Source of the DNA: Clostridia bacterium
GTDB lineage: Bacteria; Bacillota; Clostridia; Saccharofermentanales; DTU023
Direction of reading: 5' to 3'
Length of the DNA stretch: 64,000 bases
Assembly (NCBI GenBank): GCA_040767365.1
Contig: JAXGOR010000004.1
Location: 134,283 to 198,282, forward strand
Of the stretch, positions 3,337 through 46,150 are shown piece after piece. Under the pieces are notes generated by a model. It saw nothing but the letters and a program-made list of their open reading frames with translations. It made no database searches and was not told where the DNA came from. Position numbers and translations under genes: made by a program. Position 1 is the first letter of the stretch. Every line of letters starts with the position of its first letter.

Positions 3337-3758
3337 ACTACGTCATGTACAAGATGTACACATCTTATACACGAAACATCAAAGAAAAAGCAGATGCGAT
3401 CAGTCTCAGGGTTGAAAAGAAAGAATTCTTCGGTATGGAACCTAGACTCTATTTCTACCCACAATATTTCGGTCCCCTTCATAACCGGGACAATCCAAAA
3501 TATAAAAGGGAAACCGAGGCAGCCGTGGCAGATATTCAAGACGGCGCACTATGATGACGTAGTGCTTCCGGTCATCCTGGATGTACAGGAGTCAAAAGAA
3601 GCTGAGGTGACCCATAAAGCTAGACAAAAAAGGGCTGTCTTAAACACTTCACAGATTTTGAGATAGCCCCCACAGCTCCCGGCATGGAGAGCAGGCATCC
3701 AGTGCCATTAATCTCTATGGGTCTCCGATGCCAGGTATTGACACTCCTCTAAATGGTC

Positions 3759-6700
3759 TTATCCTTGGCCTTTCTTCCTTTTAAGGATAACAGCCGTCAG
3801 AAGGATCCCCAGGCCGGTAAGTAGCAGAGCAAGAATAATCAGCGCGATCCGCATCCAGACAAGACGCTTGGTACTGTCCTCTTCTCGTCCCGCTACTGTT
3901 GCAAAACCGGTTTCTGTCGTAGCGGGGCTCCGCTCCGTCCCGGGAGCGCTTGCGCCCGGTCTTTCATCGGGCGCAGATGTTGGATTATGACTGCTTGTTG
4001 TTGCCTTCGGGGCTGTTGGACCTGTGGACTCGATGACGATCCCCGCCGGTTTCGTCGCAGATGTTGTTGCGGTCCCGCTTGCTGAGGGCTCTGAGGGCTT
4101 GGGAGCCTCCTCGTTTTTGACCATGAAAGCGGCGTCAATCGATACATCTCCGCCTACCCTGAGTGAAGCGCCGGACTTTAAGGCTGTGCCATTGACCAGG
4201 AGGCTGTCCAACACAGATCCGGCACCGGGCACAGCAGCAATGGTGAGTAGGTCGTAAAAATAGACAGGATCACCGTCCGCAAGTTCCCTGCCGTCCCTCA
4301 AGATGCGGACAGAGCCGTCCCCCGCCAGATGAACCGTCAGCCTGTATTCCTCGATTTCTTTGAAGAATGCCTGGACGTCATATTTGTTCTGAAGATTATC
4401 GATCTTGTATGTCGTCTGAGTGACCAGGCCCTCTACAGGAATTTCCGTGATCCCCGCCCCCTTGGTGATCCTCCATTTCTCGAGCCTGCTCCCTGGATGT
4501 GCCTTGGCCTCAAGGACCAGCGAGGAGCCGGGAAGAAGCTGGGCCCCGCTCTGGATCGAAAGTCCATTAAAAGCTGCTGCGAGGTCCCCGGCCTGCACAG
4601 CAAAGAAGGTCACAGCGTATTTGACCGGAGCGTAGAAGCGGGCGCCCACGATCATGTCGTCCGTGAGGGCCAGGCTGACCGGGGCAGCCGAACTGCCGTA
4701 ACTGACCAGGTCATCGGTCCACATTCTGAAGGCATAATAGGCATCCGGATCCGGCTTCAAGGTGACCAAGGTCCCGACAGGCAGGGTCAGCGTCTGATCC
4801 TTGGTCCGGACACCATTGACCAGGATCCCCCCACCCTCCATCTCTGTCAGGGTCAGTTTACGGTTGACCGAAGGATCACCTTCCCGGACGAAACGCGCCT
4901 CGACCTTGTGGGCAGCGGCGTAGGGCATGAAGAGCCAGACATTTTCCCCGTTCGCCATATAGTCTGAGACCTCTGAGTCCGTCGTCACGATCCATTTTTC
5001 CAGGACATAGCCTTTAGAAGGCGCTGCGGTGAATTCGGCAGGTCCATAAACCGTGGCGCCCGAACTGAAGGGATAGTCGCCGGCAGTCGCGTGGACCCGT
5101 CCGATCTCGGCGGCATCCGGTCCTTCATAGCGTCCGGTGTACTCGATTTCGAATGCGTCGAAGACAGTCACCATTTTCGACGTCACGATGACCCGGGTGT
5201 CCCCCTGCACGATGAAGTTATATTCATGGGCCACATTGGTGATGTCCCGTCTCTTTCCCTTCACTTCCAACTCAACTCTGGTAATGGTCCGGTCCTTTTT
5301 CGGCGTAAGTTTCAGGTCAACGATGCTGTCGATCGGAATCTGGTCCCCGCTTTGGATGGGCAGGTTGCCTGTATGCCTGGCATCGACCGTCACGTCATTT
5401 TCATTGAGATCGAAAATGATCCTGTAGTTGGACCCGGCTGTTCGTACGCTTGCCGTATTTGAGGGAATGCTTTCAGGTGACTCATGACTGAAGGCCTTGA
5501 CCATGTAGGTATAGTCCGAGTTGTTTTCAAGGCCCGTCACCGTATAAGTCAAGCTGTCACTGGAAAGAGGAACCGCGTTGACCCGTTCGAAGGCTTCCTT
5601 GCCTTTTTTTTGGTAGATATTGTAACCGTCGGCCTTGAGCCGGTTCTTTTCATCCGGCTTCTCCCAGGTCAGAATGACGGAGCCTGCAGCATCATCCGGG
5701 TTCAGACGGGCGGCCAGATTCCGGGGTTTGGGCACAGGGGCCCTGAGTCCCGTCAGGGCATAGCCTAAAACAGGCGTCTTTTCATGGCTGGCCCCGCCGG
5801 GCTTGAATGACCACTTGCCGAAAGTCCAGTTGAATTTGTAGCTTTCCGATGTCGCAAGGGGAATATCCTCATCATTAAAGAGCCGATACTTGTTAATATC
5901 GAAGACCGTGCCGGATGTTTCGGTGCCCTTGGCGACGGTCGTGTATTCACCATAACCTTCAGAGCTGGCAAATTGCATGGCAACTCCGGCCCAGGCCTCG
6001 TTCCCTCCCACCGAGCTGCCTCCTTGCACGGACAAGGATAATCGGTAGCCGTTTGAATTTTCAAAGCCTGTCGTCTCCGAGCCCAGATAGGAATAGGCGC
6101 TGGTGGTCTGCCCGCCTGCGTGTCCCAGGGAATAGTTTGTCTTGCTGAGACTGACCGCATCAGTCCCTGTCCAGCTGCTGCGGTAACCCCAGGGGTTGCC
6201 CTCATTCCCCAAATAGTCGTCTTCCAGCCTATTGAGCAGCTGAATCTGCAGTTTATCCGGGTTGGCCCGGTTCAAGTCGGCCGCATAGGCGTTGTAGTAG
6301 TCAACAAAGGTGTTGTAGTCATCAAGCGACCACTGGACATAGCTGGGCTGCTGGGGGAAGGCCAGTCCGACCGCATTCTCCGTCCACTTCCCATCGACCA
6401 TCAGGTCATAGCAGTACATGACGATGGGGGTCCGGTAGAGGACAACCGTGTCAAAGGCTCCCGCCGTGAATGTACTGGAGTAGCTTTCCTCCAGACTCTC
6501 TTGAAAACTCCGGCTCCACTCACCCGTGTAACCTTCTTGAAAGGAGACCTTGAGACCGACGGCAAACTGAAAATCCAAAGCGTAACTCAAGCCGAAGGAT
6601 CGGGTCTCGGACTTGACCCTGGAGAAACCGTAAGTCTGGGAAAAACCGTAGCTGGTCCTCCCTTGGTAATCTCCCCAGGACCCCAGTTCACCAAACCAGG

Positions 6701-8600
6701 GGGCTGCCTGGAGAGCAGCCAGGACGGCCGGGTCACTGTAGGAGTAATCCATCCCCTTGTACCTGCCCATCAGGCCATCCTGATCCCGGTCGACGGCGAC
6801 GACGACGGCATTCAGTGTCTGCTTCAGCTTATCTCCTTTTTTGTCGATGAAATACTGACCCCTGTCGATGTCATTGGCGTAGAAGCTTTTCACCGGCCCG
6901 TAGGAATCCGCTGTATCTTCGTACTCATCCCCCCCGATCATGCCCAGTCTGAAATAGTAATCGCTGGAGGTCGTCGCCGCGCTTTGTCTCAGGCCGATCA
7001 CAAAAACGACCTGTTCCCGGCCCCCCTCATTGTCATCAAAATTGCCCGCGGCCACGGATTGGATGTAGGCGACGCCGATGACAGAGCTCCCGGCTCCACT
7101 GTCCTTTTTGGTGAAATAATCCGGGATAAGCTTTTCTGTGATTGTGCCGTCAACGGGAGAGACCTGGTAGAGGCCTCCCTGAATGAAGATGTAGTCTGCT
7201 GCTGCCTTGCCGTCGATGGCAACCGTCTCAAGAGCAGTCTGCTGCCAGACATCATCGCCGGAGGGGTAAAACCCGCTCTGATGCCATTTGCTTGTTTCTA
7301 TATTCTCCAAAGAGAAATCCGACAGAGTTGACGCGTGCGTGAAGAGGGCCACAGAAAACCTGTCGTTGTCAATCGTGTAGGCCCCGTCCGCATTCCCGGT
7401 ATTTTTCCCAGTCCGAATGGTATTTTTGACACCCCCGACCACCAGATCGTCGAAGCCGTCCCCGTTGACGTCCCCCGCGGCGATGCCGGGAGCGATCATG
7501 GAATGGTAGTTGGTCCTGCCATCCTCAACATTGACAGACTCCCTGATGTAGGCAGAGTCATAGGGCTTCTTGAGAATGGTTCCGCTTCCTTTGGCTCCGT
7601 TTATGGTCGCCAGAAAGGGGGCATAAAGTCGGCTGTCATATTTCTGTTTGTCGCTCTCCGGCCTATTCATATAGGAGAGAACAGCCAGATCGTCGATGCC
7701 GTCCCCGTTGAAATCGCCTGTCGCCAGGGCTGCGCACAGTTTATGTCTCGTCTTGTTGTCATTGGCTAGGGAGGCATCAAGTCGCCAGTAGACGCTGTGC
7801 AGGTAGTCCTGGATTCCCGTGTAGCTACTGTCCTTGTAGTCGAGGCCGAAGGAGGACGTCAGCCGGATCTCGCTCAGGCCGTAGCTGACGCCGTCTCCGG
7901 GGATATACACCACATAAGTCTCCTGCCCGTCCCCGTCATAATCGCCGGCCGTGATGGCGAAGAAGTTATTGGCCTTATACTGGCCCAGTCCATTCTCCCC
8001 TTGGGTCGTGGCGATCCATTCCGCTGTCCCCAGGACCTTGACCGCTGTCTTCCGGTTGTGCTCCCGTGCGTCCTGGACCCAGGTGACCACCTTTTTAGTC
8101 TGGTAATCATAGCCCACATAGGCCACATGGTCCCTGCGCCCTGAACCGGTCGCGTCAAAGGCGACCGCTTGCACGTAACCATAAGCCCGGGTGTCGGCAA
8201 AGGTCCCGTATCCGGCGAACGATCCCTTTTCACTCCAGAAATTGACGGCGACATCCAGCTTGCCGGATGCGACACTGTCGGTCACTTTACCCTTATCGAA
8301 GCCTTCGTAATAGGTTGTCCATGCCCTCCTGTTGTCCTTGTCCAGGTCATAGGTTTGGTAGAGCAGCAATTCATTCTGTTCAACAAGAAGGAAGGGCTGA
8401 TCGATGCCATAACCGTAGGGATTATTGGTGTTTTGGGGATCAAAGCCCGCAGGTTCATCATCCATTTGGATGAAATCATCAAACTGGCTGTTCTTTGAGG
8501 CCTCAACTTCTGTCGTCGGACTGAGAAACACAGGGAATATGCCGATCGCCATAAGCAGGACCAGGGTCAGACTGATGACTCTTGTTTTCTGTCTCTTCAT
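3759..8600 (-). CDS. giant secreted/cell-surface protein (1614 aa): signal peptide, FG-GAP/VCBS repeats, unknown beta-rich module, FN3, five tandem B-repeat-like modules, P/T/S-rich stalk, C-terminal TM anchor
   Basis: Track ORF 3759..9050 trimmed to the internal ATG at 8600, which has a GGAGGG RBS and an ATGA overlap with the upstream gene. The N-terminus MKRQKTRVISLTLVLLMAIGIFPVFLSPTTEVEA looks like a signal peptide. FG-GAP-like motifs include GDFNGDGIDDLAV, AAGDVNGDGFDDLVVGG and AGDYDGDGQETYVVY. An FN3-like segment reads PRNLAARL...VILTWEKPDE...YNIYQKK...YTYMVKAF. Repeated modules of about 85 aa carry YVLEKW / YAFRMW / SRLEKW. The C-terminus is LVWMRIALIILALLLTGLGILLTAVILKRKKGQG. Confidence 0.8.
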   Translation of the reverse strand: MKRQKTRVISLTLVLLMAIGIFPVFLSPTTEVEASKNSQFDDFIQMDDEPAGFDPQNTNNPYGYGIDQPFLLVEQNELLLYQTYDLDKDNRRAWTTYYEGFDKGKVTDSVASGKLDVAVNFWSEKGSFAGYGTFADTRAYGYVQAVAFDATGSGRRDHVAYVGYDYQTKKVVTWVQDAREHNRKTAVKVLGTAEWIATTQGENGLGQYKANNFFAITAGDYDGDGQETYVVYIPGDGVSYGLSEIRLTSSFGLDYKDSSYTGIQDYLHSVYWRLDASLANDNKTRHKLCAALATGDFNGDGIDDLAVLSYMNRPESDKQKYDSRLYAPFLATINGAKGSGTILKKPYDSAYIRESVNVEDGRTNYHSMIAPGIAAGDVNGDGFDDLVVGGVKNTIRTGKNTGNADGAYTIDNDRFSVALFTHASTLSDFSLENIETSKWHQSGFYPSGDDVWQQTALETVAIDGKAAADYIFIQGGLYQVSPVDGTITEKLIPDYFTKKDSGAGSSVIGVAYIQSVAAGNFDDNEGGREQVVFVIGLRQSAATTSSDYYFRLGMIGGDEYEDTADSYGPVKSFYANDIDRGQYFIDKKGDKLKQTLNAVVVAVDRDQDGLMGRYKGMDYSYSDPAVLAALQAAPWFGELGSWGDYQGRTSYGFSQTYGFSRVKSETRSFGLSYALDFQFAVGLKVSFQEGYTGEWSRSFQESLEESYSSTFTAGAFDTVVLYRTPIVMYCYDLMVDGKWTENAVGLAFPQQPSYVQWSLDDYNTFVDYYNAYAADLNRANPDKLQIQLLNRLEDDYLGNEGNPWGYRSSWTGTDAVSLSKTNYSLGHAGGQTTSAYSYLGSETTGFENSNGYRLSLSVQGGSSVGGNEAWAGVAMQFASSEGYGEYTTVAKGTETSGTVFDINKYRLFNDEDIPLATSESYKFNWTFGKWSFKPGGASHEKTPVLGYALTGLRAPVPKPRNLAARLNPDDAAGSVILTWEKPDEKNRLKADGYNIYQKKGKEAFERVNAVPLSSDSLTYTVTGLENNSDYTYMVKAFSHESPESIPSNTASVRTAGSNYRIIFDLNENDVTVDARHTGNLPIQSGDQIPIDSIVDLKLTPKKDRTITRVELEVKGKRRDITNVAHEYNFIVQGDTRVIVTSKMVTVFDAFEIEYTGRYEGPDAAEIGRVHATAGDYPFSSGATVYGPAEFTAAPSKGYVLEKWIVTTDSEVSDYMANGENVWLFMPYAAAHKVEARFVREGDPSVNRKLTLTEMEGGGILVNGVRTKDQTLTLPVGTLVTLKPDPDAYYAFRMWTDDLVSYGSSAAPVSLALTDDMIVGARFYAPVKYAVTFFAVQAGDLAAAFNGLSIQSGAQLLPGSSLVLEAKAHPGSRLEKWRITKGAGITEIPVEGLVTQTTYKIDNLQNKYDVQAFFKEIEEYRLTVHLAGDGSVRILRDGRELADGDPVYFYDLLTIAAVPGAGSVLDSLLVNGTALKSGASLRVGGDVSIDAAFMVKNEEAPKPSEPSASGTATTSATKPAGIVIESTGPTAPKATTSSHNPTSAPDERPGASAPGTERSPATTETGFATVAGREEDSTKRLVWMRIALIILALLLTGLGILLTAVILKRKKGQG

Positions 8601-25438: not shown

Positions 25439-25966
25439 TCAGTCAACCAGCTCCAGGATGGCCATGGGGGCAGCGTCACCCCGGCGGGGTCCGATCTTGG
25501 TCAAACGTGTATAGCCACCGTTGCGTGTGATGAAACGGGGGGCCACCGTATTGAAAAGATGATTGACCGTATTGACCCGACGGCCGTCCTGGTCGCGGGT
25601 CTCGACCATGAGGGCCATGAGCTTGCGGCGGGCCGCCAGCCGCGAAGGCATATCGACCTGGACCGTCTTCGTCTTCCGCTCCCGCTCAACCACATCGTAG
25701 ACCCGGTCATTCCTGGAAGTAGCCGTCCTGAGAACCTTCCGTCCCTTGTCGTCCAGCTTGGCCCCTGATACCAGGACCTTGCGGGTGGTGAAGTTATTGT
25801 GTTCTTTGACAGCCAGGGCGATCATCTTCTCGGCCAGGCGGGCGGCTTCCTTGGCCCGCGTTTCTGTCGTCGTCACCTTGCCTTCCACGATCAGGGTCGT
25901 GACCAGATTCCTCAACATGGCCTTTCTGGCAGCGGAATCGCGTCCTAGTTTTCTATATCCGGGCAT
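25439..25966 (-). CDS. rplQ: 50S ribosomal protein L17 (with internal insertion of about 50 aa)
   Basis: Track ORF of 175 aa: [21 protein letters not shown]...[25 protein letters not shown]. Confidence 0.92.
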
Positions 25967-30792: not shown

Positions 30793-32084
30793 TCAATCCA
30801 GGAAGCCCTTGTAGTGACGCATGAGCATTTGTGCCTCAAGCTGCGTCACGATATCCATGGCCACACCGACCAGGATAAGTACCGCTGTTCCACCGAACCA
30901 GATCCCGTGGGCACCGGTCAGGAGGCCAAGGAAGGCCGGCAGAAGAACCAGGACCACCAGGAAGACTGACTCAAACCAATTGAGGCGGCGGGCCGTCTTG
31001 CCGATAAAATCGGCAGTGGGCCGTCCCGGTCTGATCCCCAGGATGTAGCCGCCGTTCTTTTGCAGATTACCCGCGATCTCCACCGGATTGTAACTGATCA
31101 TGGAGTAGAAGAAGGTAAAGGCGATGATCAGAATGGCGTAGATCAGGTAATAGAGCGGGTTGCTGTTGAAATTCATAAGCCAGACCGCCAGCTTGCCCGT
31201 GCGCCTGTGAAGGAGGCGATGGTCGAGGGCACCATAAGCATGGACATGGCGAAGATGACCGGCAGAACACCGGACTGGTTCACCTTGATCGGCAGATAGG
31301 TGCTCTGGCCCCCGTACATCTTGCGGCCTACTACCCGCTTGGTGTACTGGACCGGGATCCGCCGTTCCGCGCTCTGGATGAAGACAACCAGGGCGATGAT
31401 GCCGACAAAGACCGCCACCGTCACCACAACCAGGCCCAGGGCCAGGAGGATATTCCCGGTCACGGTCAGGGTGGTGAAATAGACGAAGAGTCGCCTGGCG
31501 TAATCGGGCGACCGGCTGGCGATGCCGATGAAGATGATCAGGGAGATCCCGTTTCCGACCCCCTTGGCGTCAATCTGCTCACCCAGCCACATGATGAAGG
31601 CGGCGCCGGCGGCAAAGCTCAGGATAACCACTACCAGGCTCAGCCACTCGGGGATGCCCGGGGTAGTCGCGCCCCGTGTCAACAGGGCGTAGGAGGTGGC
31701 CATGACCAGGGAGAGGCCCAAGGTCATGAGCCGGGTGATCTTCTGGAGCTTCTTCTGGCCTTCCTCGCCTTCCTTCTGCAGGCGCTCCAGCGCCGGGATG
31801 GCAAAGGTCAGCAGCTGCATGATGATCGAGGCGTTGATATAGGGCGATATACCCAGCGCCATGACCGACACCGACTTGAAGGCGCCCCCCGAGATGATGT
31901 CGAGGAACTGGCCCAGCTGGCCAAAACGATCGATGAGCGACGCGAAGGCGACGCTGTCAATCATGGGGGTCGGGATGGCTGTCCCCAGCCTGAAGGCCAG
32001 GATGGCGAAAAGCGTGAAGAGGATCTTCTTCTTTAAGTCCGGAATTCTCCAGGCATTGGCCAGGGTCTGAAACATACTGCCCAT
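30793..32084 (-). pseudogene. secY: preprotein translocase SecY, read as two ORFs because of a 1-nt frameshift (303-aa N-part + 127-aa C-part)
   Basis: Track ORFs 31173..32084 (…LPIKVNQSGVLPVIFAMSMLMVPSTIASFTGA then RASWRSGL stop) and 30793..31176 (MNFNSNPLYYLIYAILIIAFTFFY…GGYILGIRPGRPT…HYKGFLD). The C-part frame upstream reads TGKLAVWLMNFNS, so a single missing base near 31198-31203 restores one 430-aa SecY. The span is 1292 nt (3n+2). The stop and start overlap as ATGA (31173-31176). Confidence 0.85.
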
Positions 32085-39572: not shown

Positions 39573-39926
39573 TTACTGGCCAAATCCGAATTCTGCGATC
39601 TCGGTCTTGTACTTCTTGGAGCTGGTCCCCTTCTTGCCGCCGGGAAGTGGGTATTCCACCGGCGCGGGATCGAGATCAATGGTGACAACGGCCTTCTTCC
39701 AGGACGCTGTCCGGCCGCTTGTCTTGCCCATCCGGCGCTTCTTCCCCTCAAGTCGCATGGTGTTGACCTTGACGACCTTGACGTCGAAGAGGAGTTCGCA
39801 GGCCTTGCCGATTTCCGTTCTGCTGGCGTCCCTGGCCACGGCAAAGGTATATTTCCCGAGCATGGTCTGCTCCATACTCTGCTCTGTAATGATCGGTCTC
39901 AGGATGATATCGTGCGGGTCCTTCAT
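39573..39926 (-). CDS. rplW: 50S ribosomal protein L23
   Basis: Track ORF of 117 aa: MKDPHDIILRPIITEQSMEQ...KYTFAVARDASRTEIGKACELLFDVKVVKVNT. ATGA overlap with rplD. Confidence 0.92.
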   Translation of the reverse strand: MKDPHDIILRPIITEQSMEQTMLGKYTFAVARDASRTEIGKACELLFDVKVVKVNTMRLEGKKRRMGKTSGRTASWKKAVVTIDLDPAPVEYPLPGGKKGTSSKKYKTEIAEFGFGQ

Positions 39927-40546
39927 GACGCGTATACCTCCTCCAGTGTTTCGAGCGCCTCGCGCGTCGCGATCAGCCGGTCATACTTGAGAAGATCAAG
40001 CACGGAAATCGCGTTGACCGGGGCTGTCTTGACCCCGGGCAGATTCCGCGCCGACCGGACAACATCCTCCCGCCTGCCGGCGGTGACGATAAGCGAAGTC
40101 GTGTCGGCCCCAATCTTCTTCAAGACTTCCGCCATGACACGTGTCTTTCCGTTTTCAATGGCCAGCTCGTCCAGGATGACGAGCTTCTCGCCACCCGCCT
40201 TGGTGGACAGCATGGACAGGAGGGCGAGACGGCGCAGCTTCTTGGGCAGCCGCACCCGGTAGCTCCGCGGCGTCGGCCCGAAGGTGACACCGCCGCCAAC
40301 CTTGAGCGGGGAACGGATCGAACCCTGACGGGCCCGGCCGGTACCTTTCTGACGGAAGGGCTTCCTGCCGCCCCCCCGGACTTCACTCCTGCCTTTGGTC
40401 TTGTGCGTGCCCTGCCTTCTGTTGGCCTGCTGGGCGATCATGACCCGGTAGACGGCGTCCTCATTCGGTTCAATCGCGAAGATGTCATCCGACAGATCCA
40501 TGCTGCCGACGACATCACCGTTCATGTTATATACATCGAGTTGCAT
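39923..40546 (-). CDS. rplD: 50S ribosomal protein L4
   Basis: Track ORF of 207 aa: ...QQANRRQGTHKTKGRSEVRGGGRKPFRQKGTGRARQGSIRSP. Confidence 0.95.
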   Translation of the reverse strand: MQLDVYNMNGDVVGSMDLSDDIFAIEPNEDAVYRVMIAQQANRRQGTHKTKGRSEVRGGGRKPFRQKGTGRARQGSIRSPLKVGGGVTFGPTPRSYRVRLPKKLRRLALLSMLSTKAGGEKLVILDELAIENGKTRVMAEVLKKIGADTTSLIVTAGRREDVVRSARNLPGVKTAPVNAISVLDLLKYDRLIATREALETLEEVYAS

Positions 40547-40556
40547 AAGCCCCCTC

Positions 40557-41183
40557 CTACTTCTTGGACTTGACGGTCGCCTTGATCTCGAGCAGACCGC
40601 CCTTGGGCCCGGGAACCGCGCCCTTGACGACCAGGAAGTGCCGTTCGCCGTCCACCTGGACGACGGCCAGGTTCTGTACCGTCACGCGCTTGTAGCCCAA
40701 CTGTCCGGGAAGCTTGCTTCCCTTGAAAACCTTGCCCGGCGTGGCCGCGCCACCCATGGCGCCCGCCTTGCGGTGGTACTTGGATCCGTGGGCCGCCGGC
40801 CCGCGGCGCATACCGTGCCGCCTGATGGCGCCCTGGTAGCCCTTGCCCTTGGAGGTTCCGGTGACATCGACGTGATCGCCGGCCTCGAACATTTCATCGA
40901 CCGCGATCACCTGTCCCGGCTCATAGGCCTCCCCTGTGTGGAATTCACGCAGGACCCGCAAGGGTTTCACACCTATCTTTTCAAACTGTCCCTTGTGGGG
41001 ACGGTTCCCTTTTTCGTTTTCTTCATAGCCGACACGGACCGCCTGATAGCCTTCCTTCTCCACCGTCTTGTTCTGGATGACGGTAAGGGGCCCACAGGCG
41101 ATGACGGTTACGGGAATCGCAAGCCCGTTCTCGTCAAAGATTTGTGTCATTCCGGCCTTGCGGCCCAGCATGAATTTTGACAT
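40557..41183 (-). CDS. rplC: 50S ribosomal protein L3
   Basis: Track ORF of 208 aa: MLGRKAGMTQIFDENGLAIPVTVI...TGTSKGKGYQGAIRRHG. Confidence 0.95.
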   Translation of the reverse strand: MSKFMLGRKAGMTQIFDENGLAIPVTVIACGPLTVIQNKTVEKEGYQAVRVGYEENEKGNRPHKGQFEKIGVKPLRVLREFHTGEAYEPGQVIAVDEMFEAGDHVDVTGTSKGKGYQGAIRRHGMRRGPAAHGSKYHRKAGAMGGAATPGKVFKGSKLPGQLGYKRVTVQNLAVVQVDGERHFLVVKGAVPGPKGGLLEIKATVKSKK

Positions 41184-41239
41184 GCCCTATCCTCCTGAGT
41201 TATTGGTTTGCCCTGGCAAACATTGACCCTTTTTGAGGG

Positions 41240-41551
41240 TTACAGTTTGATTTCAATATTGACGCCGGCCGGCATTTCCAGCCGCATGAGCGCCTCCACC
41301 GTCTTGGACGTCGGTGCCAGAATATCGATGAGGCGTTTGTGGGTCCTGATCTCAAATTGCTCACGCGCGTCCTTATGCATGTGCGGCGAGCGGAGAATGG
41401 TGATGATCTCCTTTTCGGTAGGGAGCGGGATCGGACCTGAGATGCTGGCGCCTGTGCGTTCCGCTGTGTTGACGATCCGCCTTGCGCTGTCGTCAAGTAT
41501 GCGGCTATCAAACGCTTTGAGTCGAATTCTGATTTTCTGGTTAACAGCCAT
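41240..41551 (-). CDS. rpsJ: 30S ribosomal protein S10
   Basis: Track ORF of 103 aa: [48 protein letters not shown]...HKRLIDI. Confidence 0.96.
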
Positions 41552-41807
41552 TCCTATACTTCCTCCTGCTATCTGCTTTCGAAATCACTATTGATTCGGG
41601 CGTATCCTTCTTTGCCAATTTAAAGCCCAGACGGCGCCAAGGCGGCACAAACGCTGGGAGCCCTACTGCCAATGGATTCCGCGCCCGGTATCGGGACCGG
41701 ACTTCTCAGGTGAAGTTCCCTGCCGGCTTGCAGTAAAACCGGGAGCAATCTCCACCGTCTTCGCTGTTTTCTATGCGCCACAAGGCGCAGAAAAAGGCGC
41801 AAGGTGG

Positions 41808-41836
41808 AGTATACAACATGATTGGGGGGATTGCAA
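41808..41836 (-). promoter_or_regulatory. candidate sigma-70 promoter of the S10 ribosomal protein operon
   Basis: On the minus strand: TTGCAA (41836-41831), a 17-nt spacer, then TATACT (41813-41808). This implies a leader of about 250 nt before the rpsJ ATG at 41551. Confidence 0.55.
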
Positions 41837-41848
41837 ACGGAAATTTTC

Positions 41849-41861
41849 CTCGGATCCATTG
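41849..41861. repeat. left copy of the 13-bp target-site duplication CTCGGATCCATTG flanking the IS30-family element
   Basis: Identical 13-mer at 43590-43602. Each copy abuts a terminal inverted repeat. Confidence 0.8.
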
Positions 41862-41889
41862 AGATAAATGACAATGTAACCTGGACAGT
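41862..41889. repeat. IS30-family element left terminal inverted repeat
   Basis: Matches the reverse complement of 43562-43589 at 25/28. Confidence 0.8.
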
Positions 41890-42033
41890 GAGTCAAAAAA
41901 AACGTCCAGCTTAATCTGGCAAATAGAATGTCCTACTTAATCTGGCAAGAGTGACCTCTTTCGTCAACCAAAACTTTATACTGTCCCAAGAGAAGAACCA
42001 AGCTCAAGGCGGGCCTTCCCTAAGGAGGTTGCC

Positions 42034-43329
42034 ATGAGCCACTACCAACACCTGACCCTGGAGGACAGGGTCTTAATCAAAATGAAACTGGAAGCTGCCG
42101 ACTCTTTTCGTAAGATCGCAAAAGACTTGGGTAAATCCCCCACCACCATCTCCCAGGAGATAAAAAAGCATCGGAGCCGTATCGAGAAGAATGCCTTCAA
42201 TACCCGCTACAACCCTTGTAAGCACCGATTCCACTGTCCTGCCCAACTTTTATGTGGCAGGCTCTACTGCAAGAAGAAAACCTGTGCCTCCTGCAAGGAA
42301 GGCTGCTCTCCTCTTTGCCCTGACTTCGAAGAAGAATACTGCCCACGCCTGCAAAAGGCACCCTATGTCTGCCATGGCTGTAAACAAAAGCACCGTTGTG
42401 GCCTGACCCGCTACGAGTACATGCCCACCGTTGCTCACCATCAATACCTGGAGCTCCTGTCCGAATCCCGTCAAGGGAGGTCTTATTCGCCTGAAGAGGT
42501 CGACTCCATCCGCAAGATCGTGAAGGCAGATCTCAAGCGGGGGCTATCGCCTTACATCATCTGGGCCAACCACAAGAACGAACTGCCTTGCTCTCACCGG
42601 ACCATCTACCGGCTCATCCAGGACCGAGCCCTGGCTGAAGTCTCAGGCTTTGACCTGCCCTACAAGATCCGTTACCGGCCCAGAAGAAAGAGGCGGGAGC
42701 ACAAGATTGACACGCGCTGCCGTCAGGGGAGGACCTGCCAGGACTACCTGGCCTTCATGGGGGAGGACCCCTGGCCCGTCGTCGAGATGGACACGGTCAT
42801 CGGGACGGTCGGGGGCAAGGTCATCTTGTCCCTCTATTTCCAAGAGTCCTCCTTGCTCCTCTTATACTTGAGAGAACGTAATACGGCCCAGTCCGTCATC
42901 GATTGCTTTAATCGCCTCTACGATGTCCTGGGCCGGGACAGCTTTTGTCGACTCTTCCCGGTCCTCCTCACCGACAACGGATCGGAGTTCTCCAATCCTG
43001 TTGCCATTGAGTTTGACCAAGAAGGCCAAAGGCGGACCCGGATCTACTATTGTGACCCGGGGATGCCAAACCAGAAGCCTGGAGTGGAAGGGGCCCACAA
43101 GCACTTAAGGCGCATTTTACCCAAGGGGACGTCTTTCAATGATCTGACCCAGGAAGACCTGAACCAGGTCATGGGCCATGTCAACGGTTTCCCCAGAAAA
43201 AAGCTGAATGACCGGTCACCAACCCAGTCATTCAGCGCTACTTTCGGGAGGGACATCCTGGAACGCTTAGGCGTTCCTTGTATCGATCCTTCCCAAGTAG
43301 TTTTACGGCCCAGCGCCCTACAAAAGTAG
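42034..43329 (+). CDS. IS30-family DDE transposase with a Cys-rich insertion
   Basis: Track ORF of 431 aa. N-terminal HTH: HLTLEDRVLIKMKLEAADSFRKIAKDLGKSPTTISQEIKKH. DDE core: ...VVEMDTVIG...LLTDNGSEFS...YYCDPGMPNQKPGVEGAHKHLRR. AAGGAGG RBS. Confidence 0.9.
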   Translation: MSHYQHLTLEDRVLIKMKLEAADSFRKIAKDLGKSPTTISQEIKKHRSRIEKNAFNTRYNPCKHRFHCPAQLLCGRLYCKKKTCASCKEGCSPLCPDFEEEYCPRLQKAPYVCHGCKQKHRCGLTRYEYMPTVAHHQYLELLSESRQGRSYSPEEVDSIRKIVKADLKRGLSPYIIWANHKNELPCSHRTIYRLIQDRALAEVSGFDLPYKIRYRPRRKRREHKIDTRCRQGRTCQDYLAFMGEDPWPVVEMDTVIGTVGGKVILSLYFQESSLLLLYLRERNTAQSVIDCFNRLYDVLGRDSFCRLFPVLLTDNGSEFSNPVAIEFDQEGQRRTRIYYCDPGMPNQKPGVEGAHKHLRRILPKGTSFNDLTQEDLNQVMGHVNGFPRKKLNDRSPTQSFSATFGRDILERLGVPCIDPSQVVLRPSALQK

Positions 43330-43561
43330 ACCGCTGATTTTTCGGGAAAAAGCCCGCCTCGAACGCCGTTCTTCTCTAACGTTCCAGGCCATCCAGCTTA
43401 AAGTGTCGTAAACGACAAATAGCTCGATGGTTCTGTTAAGCGCGCTCTTCTTTCCTGCCGTGCTCCCCATTCTACCATTTATCTTCGCTTTACGGGGTTT
43501 TTCTTGTGACTGCCAAACCCCTCGCTACAGTTTGTTTCAAGTTTTCTTGGATCCCTACTCT

Positions 43562-43589
43562 ACTGTCCAGGTTAGCTTGTCATTTATCG
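43562..43589. repeat. IS30-family element right terminal inverted repeat
   Basis: See the left repeat (25/28 match). Confidence 0.8.
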
Positions 43590-43602
43590 CTCGGATCCAT
43601 TG
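43590..43602. repeat. right copy of the 13-bp target-site duplication CTCGGATCCATTG
   Basis: Identical to 41849-41861. Confidence 0.8.
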
Positions 43603-43680
43603 TAACAAAGGACTTGCGGCTGATGTTATCTTTGTAGGAAGGAAGTTTGAAGCGAGCAGGAAGGAATCCGAAAAAAGCAT

Positions 43681-44673
43681 ATGTTAGAGAAGATAAGGGA
43701 GGGCCTTTACCGGCTTGAGATCCCACTCCCCCGCAACCCCCTGCGGACTTTGAATAGTTACATCATGAACTCCCCTGACCGGAATCTTATCGTCGATACC
43801 GGTTTCAACCTGCCTGAATGCCTGGCGGCCCTGGAGGCGGGAATCAGGGAGCTGGGCCTGGACATGGAAAAGACGGATGTGCTGGCGACCCATTTTCACG
43901 CGGATCACACCGGGCTCATGCCCCGGATCCTGACCGACAGGTCCCGGGCCTTCATGGGACGGATCGACAGGGCCATGCTGAGGGAACAGATCGGGCGCGG
44001 CGACGACTATTGGCGTGACGGCGAAAACAGGTACCGGCGGGAGGGTTATCCGGAGGCGGATCTCCGGGAGACAGCCCGGTTGAATCCGGGGCGCCATTTT
44101 ATCGCGGATGCCCTGTTCGAGATCACCCCGCTCGACCGGGGGGACAGGATCAGCTGCGGGTCCATGCACTGGGAGGTCATCCCCACCCCGGGACACACCC
44201 CGGGCCATATCTGCCTCTACGAGCCGGACCTGGAACTCCTGATCTCCGGGGACCACCTGCTCTTTGACATCACCCCCAACATTACCTATTGGAAGGTCAT
44301 GACCGATTCACTTGAAAGCTATCTGACCAGCCTCAAGGCCATAGCCGGCTTGAAGGTCCAGGTCGTTTTGCCCGGCCACCGGGGCCGGGAGGGTTCCTTG
44401 GGGGGACGGGTCCTCGAGCTGTTGGACCACCATGAGAAGCGGCTGGCGGACGTACTCCGCATCGTTGGGGAGAATCCCTTCATCACCGCCTACGAGGTCG
44501 CCTCCCGGATGGAATGGTCCATCCGGGCCGACAGCTGGTCTGATTTCCCGCCGGGACAGCGCTGGTTTGCCGTGGGTGAAGCCATCGCCCATATCCTGCA
44601 TCTGGTCAACAAGGGGAAACTGGAGCGGCACAGCCGGGGGGATGTCCACACCTATTGCCTGGCCAAGGCCTAG
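43681..44673 (+). CDS. MBL-fold metallo-hydrolase
   Basis: Track ORF of 330 aa: ...NLIVDTGF...ATHFHADHTGL...TPGHTPGHICL...LPGH. Confidence 0.8.
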   Translation: MLEKIREGLYRLEIPLPRNPLRTLNSYIMNSPDRNLIVDTGFNLPECLAALEAGIRELGLDMEKTDVLATHFHADHTGLMPRILTDRSRAFMGRIDRAMLREQIGRGDDYWRDGENRYRREGYPEADLRETARLNPGRHFIADALFEITPLDRGDRISCGSMHWEVIPTPGHTPGHICLYEPDLELLISGDHLLFDITPNITYWKVMTDSLESYLTSLKAIAGLKVQVVLPGHRGREGSLGGRVLELLDHHEKRLADVLRIVGENPFITAYEVASRMEWSIRADSWSDFPPGQRWFAVGEAIAHILHLVNKGKLERHSRGDVHTYCLAKA

Positions 44674-44692: not shown

Positions 44693-46150
44693 TCATTTTT
44701 TCCGTCTGACTTCCGGCTGTAGCAGCTCCAGGGCCTTCTGCAGCTGGTCATCCTCCTCCAGGGTGCGCCGGTTGGGCGCCTTGGTCTCGACCTCATCGGG
44801 CAGTTTGATCTCGTAGTCCGGCTTCAGCCCCACCTGATCGATGGATTCCCCCTTGGGCAGGAAGTACTCAAAACCGGTGATCTGGACGGCCGAATTGTCA
44901 GGCAGCTTCCAGGTCATGGTGCCGACCCCCTTGCCAAAGGAGTTCTCCCCCACGATGACGGCCTTGCCGTGATCGCGCAGGGCCCCGGCGAACAATTCGC
45001 TGGCGCTGGCGGAATAGCGGTTGAGCAGGATCACGTAGCGGGTATCGTCAGGTGTGAGCGAAGCCGTCTTCGTCTTCCATTCATCCTCGTAGACCTGGCC
45101 CTCCTCACGGCCCTTGACCGTGGCGACCGTCACCGGCGGCAGGACCACATCGAGCATGTTGATGCATTCCTGGGCGTAGCCGCCCCCGTTATTGCGGAGA
45201 TCAATCACGAAATGTTCGGCGCCCTTGAGCATGAGCGCGACCAGGGCGTTTTCAAAATGCTCAGCCGCATGGTCTGAAAATTCAGTCAAATGGATATAGC
45301 CGATGCCGGTATCCAGGAAGTAGAAACGGACCGCTGCGTTGGCGACCTTGGCCCGCTTGATGGTCAGGCTCAGCTCCCTGTTTTCCAGGGGGCGGTAGAT
45401 GACCAGCTTGACCAGGGTCCCCTCATCCCCGCGGACGGCCGCCGCCAGTTCGCCGACATCCTCGAACTCCAGGGCATCCTTCCCGTCCACCTTGACAAAG
45501 ATATCGCCGACGAAAAGATCGACCGATTCCGCAGGACTGTCCGGGATGATGTCACTGATGACAAAGTTGCCGTCATGATCCTTCATGACAACGGCCCCGA
45601 TGCCGTAATACTCGCCCTTCATCGAGTCCTCGACAGCCTGATTGTATTCGGGGGTCAGATAAAAGGTATAGGGGCTCCCCATCTCATTGATGAGCCCTTC
45701 CGTCATCTTGCCGATCATCTCGGCATCGTTGAACTCCTGGTAATAGTTTGCCTGGAGGAGGTTATAGACGGTCGAGAATTTTTCCAGGGCCTCCTCCAGG
45801 CCCTCCCCGTCGGTAAAGGTCAGGGTCCGGTCGCCGGGCGCCGCCCCTCCCGGGGAGGATCCCGGTCCGTTCACCAGGCCCCTGATCGCGTCGGCAAAGA
45901 AGACATAGCCGACCGCGGCCGTGAGGACGAAGGTCAGGGAGGCCGTGATCAGGACGGCCAGGAAGACCGGCCAGAAGAGCTTCCTCTTCGCTTTCGGGGG
46001 TTTTTTAGGCGGCGGGGCGCCCTGCCCAGGCAGGAGCTGGCGATGGAGGTAGTGGCCCTGGTCCCCGCCTGGGGAATGCTCCTTATAGCCTTGTTGAATA
46101 TTGTTTTCAAAACCGGGCTTTTCCGGCTGTTCATCCTGGTATCTGTTCAT
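44693..46150 (-). CDS. ctpA: S41-family C-terminal processing peptidase (PDZ-containing)
   Basis: Track ORF of 485 aa: N-terminal TM, PDZ-like GDIFVKVDG, and catalytic region LLNRYSASASELFAGALRDHGKAVIVGENSFGKG. Confidence 0.85.
   Translation of the reverse strand: MNRYQDEQPEKPGFENNIQQGYKEHSPGGDQGHYLHRQLLPGQGAPPPKKPPKAKRKLFWPVFLAVLITASLTFVLTAAVGYVFFADAIRGLVNGPGSSPGGAAPGDRTLTFTDGEGLEEALEKFSTVYNLLQANYYQEFNDAEMIGKMTEGLINEMGSPYTFYLTPEYNQAVEDSMKGEYYGIGAVVMKDHDGNFVISDIIPDSPAESVDLFVGDIFVKVDGKDALEFEDVGELAAAVRGDEGTLVKLVIYRPLENRELSLTIKRAKVANAAVRFYFLDTGIGYIHLTEFSDHAAEHFENALVALMLKGAEHFVIDLRNNGGGYAQECINMLDVVLPPVTVATVKGREEGQVYEDEWKTKTASLTPDDTRYVILLNRYSASASELFAGALRDHGKAVIVGENSFGKGVGTMTWKLPDNSAVQITGFEYFLPKGESIDQVGLKPDYEIKLPDEVETKAPNRRTLEEDDQLQKALELLQPEVRRKK

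Follow-up and report, generated by a model that had tools for sequence, protein, structure and literature searches.

The locus considered here lies in a 64-kb stretch of DNA from a Clostridia bacterium (contig JAXGOR010000004.1), referred to as the window, in which an insertion sequence (IS) of 1728 bp, assignable to the IS30 family, occupies positions 41862–43589 just upstream of rpsJ, the first gene of the S10-spc-alpha ribosomal-protein cluster. The two ends of that element are abutted by identical 13-mers, and the question raised by the locus is whether so long a repeat constitutes a genuine target duplication and, if it does, whether its length is peculiar to this copy or proper to a wider group of elements; a second question is what the insertion might mean for the expression of the ribosomal-protein genes next to it. 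The reading that we favor, with a probability of roughly 0.88, is that the window contains a complete IS30-family copy—probably an active one—belonging to a deep cysteine-rich branch of the family that occurs in Clostridia and other anaerobes, in which branch the stagger would be fixed at 13 bp, and that the insertion upstream of rpsJ is most likely a near-neutral one.

The insertion and its empty site

The left copy of the 13-mer, CTCGGATCCATTG, spans positions 41849–41861 and abuts the left IS end, while the right copy, at 43590–43602, repeats it exactly and abuts the right end, as the initial annotation had reported. When up to one mismatch was allowed, the 13-mer occurred in the window at these two places only, with 0.16 occurrences expected by chance. 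The insertion point can be compared with the same locus in a strain represented in sample SRR24100345, from which two contigs are informative: the first, short one (L001) carries rpsJ-rplC-rplD and encodes an S10 protein identical to that of the window; the second (L027) carries a 99%-identical orthologue (P0135) of the metallo-beta-lactamase (MBL)-fold protein encoded on the other side of the IS. In L027 the sequence reads ...ggggggattgcaaacggaaattttc CTCGGATCCATTG taacaaaggacttgcgg..., with the 13-mer present as a single copy at positions 187–199, and that contig is colinear with the window after removal of 41862–43602, with no gaps and 33 mismatches over 2831 bp, the first 743 bp being identical. 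L001, for its part, aligns over 1923 bp with positions 39756–41678 of the window, 11 of the bases being mismatched, and shares 16 nt with the end of L027, so that the spacer between rpsJ and the MBL gene in the SRR24100345 strain can be read as an uninterrupted 388 bp. Since this empty site carries the 13-mer once and is colinear with the window on both sides, a 13-bp target-site duplication at this insertion is proven. The insertion is, furthermore, polymorphic among strains that are about 99% identical, and it is therefore recent. An empty site reading ...TTTTCCTCGGATCCATTGTAACAAAGG... had been predicted in the initial annotation, and L027 contains it; the recent and unrearranged character of the insertion that had been proposed there is thus borne out.

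The limits of the element were fixed by the empty site and by comparison with 7–10 related copies, whose flanks were different in all instances. The left terminal inverted repeat (TIR; IRL) covers 41862–41889 on the plus strand (AGATAAATGACAATGTAACCTGGACAGT) and is identical at 25 of 28 positions—the count that had been claimed—to the reverse complement of 43562–43589, the right repeat (IRR), which reads CGATAAATGACAAGCTAACCTGGACAGT on the minus strand; a repeat finder gave the pair as 27 nt at 93%. No further occurrence of the TIR pattern was found in the 64-kb window. The outermost base, situated just outside GATAAATG, is constant in the related copies, being an A at the left end and a C at the right end in the reverse complement. 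The guanine-plus-cytosine content of the element is 52.4%, compared with 56.2% in the remainder of the window, and its length stands at or slightly above the usual size of IS30-family elements, which is 1.0–1.7 kb.

Inside the left end, two direct repeats of CTTAATCTGGCAA are located on the plus strand at 41910–41922 and 41936–41948, one base to the right of where they had first, and approximately, been placed, and a repeat finder includes both within a 26-nt tandem unit. Their conservation supports the notice that had been drawn to them: the motif TTAATCTGGC, with TGTCC or TGTTC directly 5' of it, is kept in seven related copies, the adjoining bases being variable. These conserved sub-terminal repeats would be candidate secondary transposase-binding sites; sub-terminal sequences modulate the transposition of IS30 according to Szabo et al. 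(2008), as cited in PMC9927407. The single 1296-nt open reading frame (ORF) found between the TIRs, which is the transposase gene, is in turn bracketed by the arms of a long-range inverted repeat detected by the repeat finder on the plus strand, with 29 nt per arm and 79% complementarity: the 5' arm (41989–42017), just upstream of the ribosome-binding site of the transposase gene, stops 16 nt short of the start codon, and the 3' arm (43349–43377) opens 20 nt past the stop codon. The 10–13-nt core of those arms (AGAGAAGAACC and GGTTCTTCTCT) is conserved in relatives, including the copy on contig L002, and the two arms could pair in a full-length transcript, in which circumstance translation or the stability of the mRNA might be affected.

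The predicted rpsJ promoter beside the insertion

The insertion locus is the 388-bp intergenic region between rpsJ (41240–41551, minus strand; Pfam Ribosomal_S10, 7.4e-37) and the divergent gene for an MBL-fold hydrolase (43681–44673, plus strand; Pfam Lactamase_B, 1.5e-22), whose start lies 78 bp past the right duplication copy. From rpsJ the S10-spc-alpha cluster extends along the minus strand down to rplQ (25439–25966), with its genes tightly spaced. When both strands of 41400–43800 were scanned, the sole sigma-70-like site was a predicted promoter for rpsJ on the minus strand at 41808–41836, consisting of TTGCAA (41831–41836), a 17-nt spacer, and TATACT (41808–41813); the same promoter is present, identical and again as the only one, in the spacer of the empty site, with 0.1 expected by chance, and none was recognized for the MBL gene within the region scanned. 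Because of the tight gene spacing, it is plausible that the predicted promoter drives the entire cluster. Between the tip of the IS and the −35 hexamer lie 25 bases (41837–41861), exactly the distance given in the initial annotation. If the start site is set at about 7 nt past the −10 hexamer, near 41801, then the tip of the IS falls at about −61, with the left duplication copy spanning −48 to −60, so that both hexamers and the whole stretch from −38 to −60 are native DNA. The UP elements contacted by the C-terminal domains of the RNA-polymerase alpha subunit are found at about −40 to −60.

It had been proposed that IS DNA had replaced the upstream activating sequences of this promoter, and a material change in the expression of the S10-spc-alpha cluster could follow from such a replacement, or else from signals brought in by the element itself. 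The short distance from the IS tip to the −35 hexamer would favor such an effect, as would the circumstance that the DNA beyond about −61 is now an A+T-rich IS end and the presence at both IS ends, 7 nt from the tip, of an outward-facing TTGTCA hexamer, which sequence could serve as the −35 element of a junction promoter. Yet the −35 and −10 hexamers and all of the −38 to −60 stretch are unchanged, with the left duplication copy preserving the native sequence as far as −60; at neither IS end is the TTGTCA followed, 16–18 nt on, by a −10-like hexamer, and the scan of 41400–43800 revealed no hybrid or outward promoter at the IS ends, nor any other promoter on either strand. The transposase gene, moreover, is read away from rpsJ; no upstream activator for this promoter is known or visible; and a strain with the insertion upstream of these essential genes exists. 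We thus consider a material effect on expression to be unlikely, and the proposal of replaced activating sequences is not supported, in that the IS starts at about −61, the UP-element zone is native, and no activator site can be seen. Given an intact pair of hexamers, native DNA from −40 to −60, and a transposase gene directed away from rpsJ, we take the insertion to be most likely close to neutral for the expression of the cluster, as a consequence of which its position some 61 bp upstream of the inferred rpsJ start would be tolerated. For the study of the host, the situation of an IS at such a distance from the inferred start of an essential gene, the promoter itself being untouched, provides in the strain pair with and without the element a natural experiment on the upstream context of a promoter.

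If the predicted promoter is used, rpsJ would have a GC-rich 5' leader of about 250 nt (41552–41801, minus strand). An Rfam scan of the window between 30 and 50 kb had no hit at E ≤ 1, and the predicted folding energy of that leader was not unusual (z = −0.81); there is therefore no evidence for a structured leader. Conservation of the rpsJ promoter was sought by synteny through a 60%-identical orthologue of the MBL protein, but the gene order is not conserved there. In another assembly, a 225-residue fragment that is 99% identical to the MBL protein of the window (P0199) is encoded on the same contig as a slightly different transposase of this IS (P0127), which arrangement would fit a sister strain with a possible IS copy in the MBL gene or next to it.

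The transposase, its relatives, and the length of the duplication

The transposase gene (42034–43329, plus strand) is intact and encodes 431 amino acids, in which an HTH_38 domain (residues 3–46), a cysteine-rich insert (62–122), and a DDE core (127–389) follow one another. The N-terminal match to Pfam HTH_38 has an E-value of 1.2e-13 and 51 bits against a cut-off of 27, and the helix-turn-helix (HTH) is predicted as three helices within residues 9–45 at a predicted local distance difference test (pLDDT) score above 90. Residues 127–389 match the NCBIfam model NF033563 (transpos_IS30) with 107.8 bits against a cut-off of 80, while the runner-up models, IS481 and IS21, remain far under their own cut-offs. 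D253, D314, and E352 do not vary in alignments that extend to relatives of only 26% identity, with R359 placed seven residues after E352; the 60 residues between the two aspartates fit the published spacing of D-(54–61)-D-(33)-E (PMC2516522). In the AlphaFold model, whose mean pLDDT is 85, the core superposes on the catalytic cores of retroviral integrases and on IstA, so that the predicted fold would be an integrase-like RNase H, and a profile search of the PDB sequences found no solved relative. The HTH_38 domain, the NCBIfam score, the invariant D253/D314/E352, and the predicted integrase-like core together support the assignment to the IS30 family, on which point—as on the intactness of the element—the initial annotation proves to have been correct.

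The sequence of the window transposase is identical to that of P0134, and several further large contigs at NCBI encode near-identical transposases, with few residue differences and some of them frameshifted; the source genome or genomes must therefore contain multiple copies of the element. A copy of the element with 96.8% identity is found on contig L006, and distinct flanks surround those of L003, L006, and L007; further ends were gathered from metagenome contigs by a scan with the TIR pattern, as well as from relatives at 77–81% identity. Beyond the constant terminal A and C the flanks are unrelated among copies, and the 13-mer is therefore not element sequence, which possibility had been named as one that could overturn the duplication. 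The IS had no match by megablast in a plasmid collection, nor any in viral contigs.

Where relatives exhibit a duplication, it is again 13 bp long. The copy on L009, whose transposase has 77% amino-acid identity, is flanked by a perfect 13-bp duplication (AAAGAATTTGCAA). An 1815-bp gut element encoding the transposase P0090, at 46% identity, was found in eight distinct insertions, six of them with exact 13-bp duplications and two in which the duplication, also of 13 bp, is displaced from the end by 1 or 3 nt. On a complete plasmid of Clostridium beijerinckii (WP_173710111.1, NZ_CP107023; 41% identity), GAAAATTAGAAAT occurs twice, once more 13 bp, and on a Collinsella replicon (29–34% identity) the duplicated sequence is CCCAGAGAGTCCC(C), of 13 or 14 bp depending on the assignment of the terminal C's. 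The window included, 12 independent insertions thus have a duplication of this length over a range of transposase identity of about 30–100%, and 13 bp is a constant footprint of the clade rather than a peculiarity of the window copy. The contrast drawn in the initial annotation with the usual 2–3 bp is consequently valid in one sense and not in another: the duplication is indeed far longer than the 2 bp of ISApl1 (PMC9927407), but it is clade-wide, and long duplications have a precedent within the family, given that IS1630 of Mycoplasma fermentans M64 generated duplications of 16, 23, 25, and 26 bp (PMC3317919). Copies with 2–3 bp, which had been suggested as a possible refutation, were not encountered among the relatives showing a duplication, all of which gave 13 bp (13–14 in Collinsella).

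Such a footprint would arise if the two 3'-OH ends of the element attacked target phosphates 13 bp apart, or about 1.25 helical turns, and if the gaps left by that staggered joining were then repaired; the stagger would be fixed by the architecture of the transposase complex and not by the target sequence. By analogy with other IS30 members, the element presumably moves by a copy-out/paste-in route through a circle with abutted ends.

Several observations weigh against the reading that we propose. The spacing between D314 and E352 is 37 residues, thus exceeding the published 33 (PMC2516522), and the Pfam rve model does not match the transposase. In addition, no duplication is visible around the metagenomic copies on L002, L004, L006, and L008, the first of these being the single relative that the scan of genome contigs yielded. 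We attribute those missing duplications to contigs assembled as chimeras or to copies that have recombined, without proof for each contig, because mixed flanks do occur in these collections: L010, L011, and L012 each have one flank only in common with L009, and in L023 the left flank is that of L022, the right one that of L021.

A different account of the length would be that the element, like IS30 and IS1630, picks palindromic targets, of which GGATCC would be one, and that the long duplication is simply the recognized inverted repeat in duplicate. The duplication in the window does include the GGATCC palindrome, as the initial annotation pointed out, and short palindromes also occur in other duplications (AAATTT, ACATGT, AATT, and TTGCAA); a preference for imperfect palindromes has been reported for IS30-family elements (PMC9927407), and IS1630 duplicates inverted repeats, according to the title of Calcutt et al. 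(1999) as cited in PMC3317919. In the 11 targets that could be reconstructed, nevertheless, symmetry was no better than in shuffled sequences—53 symmetric pairs about the center of the duplication against 49.4 ± 5.5, with 27% of the shuffles equaling or exceeding the observed value—and neither a consensus nor a symmetry emerged from that small sample. The small palindromes, moreover, are situated at differing offsets, and the length is a constant 13 bp instead of the variable 16–26 bp of IS1630 (PMC3317919). We therefore regard a palindrome-directed length as quite improbable; GGATCC, though present, has no detectable role in these targets and is probably incidental. That the 13-mers might be no target duplication at all, but might belong to the element, recur by chance, or form the core of a site-specific attachment site, is scarcely credible, since in favor of it there is a faint resemblance of the L002 flanks to the 13-mer, while opposed to it are the empty site with its one 13-mer and colinear surroundings, the differing 13-mers of all the other insertions, and the rarity of chance matches in the window; the element-sequence version, which those L002 flanks had prompted, is excluded by the constant terminal bases, the unrelated flanks, and L027.

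The surviving insertions of the clade are mostly intergenic or in promoter regions: the window copy lies upstream of rpsJ, that of L008 separates rpsT from a peptidase gene, that of L009 precedes the gene for a BlaI-like repressor, and the 1815-bp element has HTH_26 genes as neighbors, which bias is the pattern that selection against gene disruption would produce. At eight of ten loci (L014–L023) a small HTH_26 gene, of the Cro/C1 type, is found within about 10–650 bp of that 1815-bp relative, frequently with genes for restriction-modification or for recombinases alongside, an association which suggests that the element either favors promoter regions of this kind or is carried along on mobile islands. 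The L008 element, an 81%-identical relative at 3457–6968, has rpsT (S20) on one side and an S41/PDZ peptidase gene on the other, and it too is situated a short way upstream of a gene for a ribosomal protein; the window likewise has an S41/PDZ peptidase gene, at 44693–46150, two genes from the IS. An 11-mer, CAGCCGCAAGT in the minus-strand reading, recurs 22–24 nt outside an IS end in two unrelated insertions, beside the IRR in the window (43613–43623) and beside the IRL in L006, and may represent either chance or the hint of a target feature. IS30 targets its own inverted repeats, and in L002 a TIR-like sequence (AGATTTATGACAG, compared with AGATAAATGACAA) is found at 2540–2565, some 36 nt outside the left end of the IS copy.

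The cysteine-rich module and the canonical IS30 elements

The cysteine-rich module is an insert of about 60 amino acids (residues 62–122, encoded at 42217–42399 on the plus strand) between the HTH and the region matched by the IS30 model. Eleven of its cysteines—C62, C68, C74, C84, C87, C91, C95, C103, C113, C116, and C122—are invariant in 49 homologues, and C79 is conserved in addition at about 90%. The segment is missing from two IS30-type transposases of canonical length, encoded on plasmids of Lactobacillus helveticus and Staphylococcus saprophyticus. It was modeled at pLDDT 71–89 with almost no regular secondary structure and contains the sequence C84-x2-C-x3-C-x3-C95-P, which recalls the CxxCxxCxxxCP motifs of the ferredoxin type, so that the module may possibly bind an Fe–S cluster rather than Zn. 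In the transposases of all the elements with 13-bp duplications the cysteines of the insert, or at a minimum the distal ones, are kept, and the module, confined to this clade, is a candidate for setting the geometry of strand transfer or for providing extra contacts with the DNA.

Homologues of the transposase number more than 6000 at E ≤ 1e-10, mostly from anaerobic Bacillota and reaching into the Actinomycetota. We suggest, though only tentatively and at less than even odds, that they make up, with the window element as its representative, a large, deep, and as yet undescribed IS30-like subgroup, to be defined by a module of 11–12 invariant cysteines between two DNA-binding regions along with an invariant 13-bp stagger; in the literature searched, which did not cover ISfinder, we found nothing relevant on a fixed duplication of 13 or 14 bp or on a Cys-rich domain in IS30 elements. 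If this suggestion were true, the geometry of the synaptic complex would be quite unlike that of the canonical IS30 with its 2–3 bp.

The canonical members IS30, ISApl1, and IS1655 share with the window element a single transposase that has an N-terminal HTH and a DDE core matching the NCBIfam IS30 model, TIRs of 20–30 bp, and sub-terminal sequences near the ends. Those members measure about 1.0–1.2 kb, with transposases of 340–380 amino acids, in comparison with which both the 1728 bp and the 431 amino acids of the window element are larger. The differences further include the duplication (2–3 against 13 bp), the extra insert with its 11 invariant cysteines, the wider D–E spacing already mentioned, and the lack of a detectable preference for palindromic targets (11 targets). 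For the canonical short duplications we used published values; the plasmid-borne IS30-type copies L028 and L029 had ends that were not fixable from single copies. IS1630, by contrast, is an accepted IS30-family member with long duplications, which precedent renders a long stagger compatible with membership in the family; it differs in that its variable lengths match inverted repeats in the target, whereas the clade of the window has a fixed 13 bp and no requirement for symmetry. Closest in character are the unnamed IS30-family elements of Clostridia and Coriobacteriia—the one encoding WP_173710111.1 on NZ_CP107023 and the 1815-bp element encoding P0090—which have the same architecture, the Cys-rich insert, and the 13-bp duplication, but differ in transposase sequence (29–47% identity) and in their TIRs (CCTCAATTG... 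against AGATAAATGAC...); the window element and its relatives at 77–98% form a separate IS species.

For annotation, a cleanly delimited IS with a proven empty site provides a reference copy for that species, and the 2–3 bp usually quoted for IS30 elements do not hold in one entire, populous branch. The wider interest is confined to the clade-wide 13 bp and the Cys module: exact 13-bp duplications, among transposases only some 30% identical, coincide with a conserved cysteine-rich module, and if that module were to set the spacing of the active sites on the target, it would offer a handle on what determines the length of the stagger in DDE transposases.

Elsewhere in the ribosomal-protein cluster, secY is seemingly split into two adjacent ORFs on the minus strand, at 31173–32084 (303 amino acids, covering positions 1–199 of 306 of Pfam SecY) and 30793–31176 (127 amino acids), which division could stem from a frameshift, from an error in sequencing, or from artefactual ORF picking.

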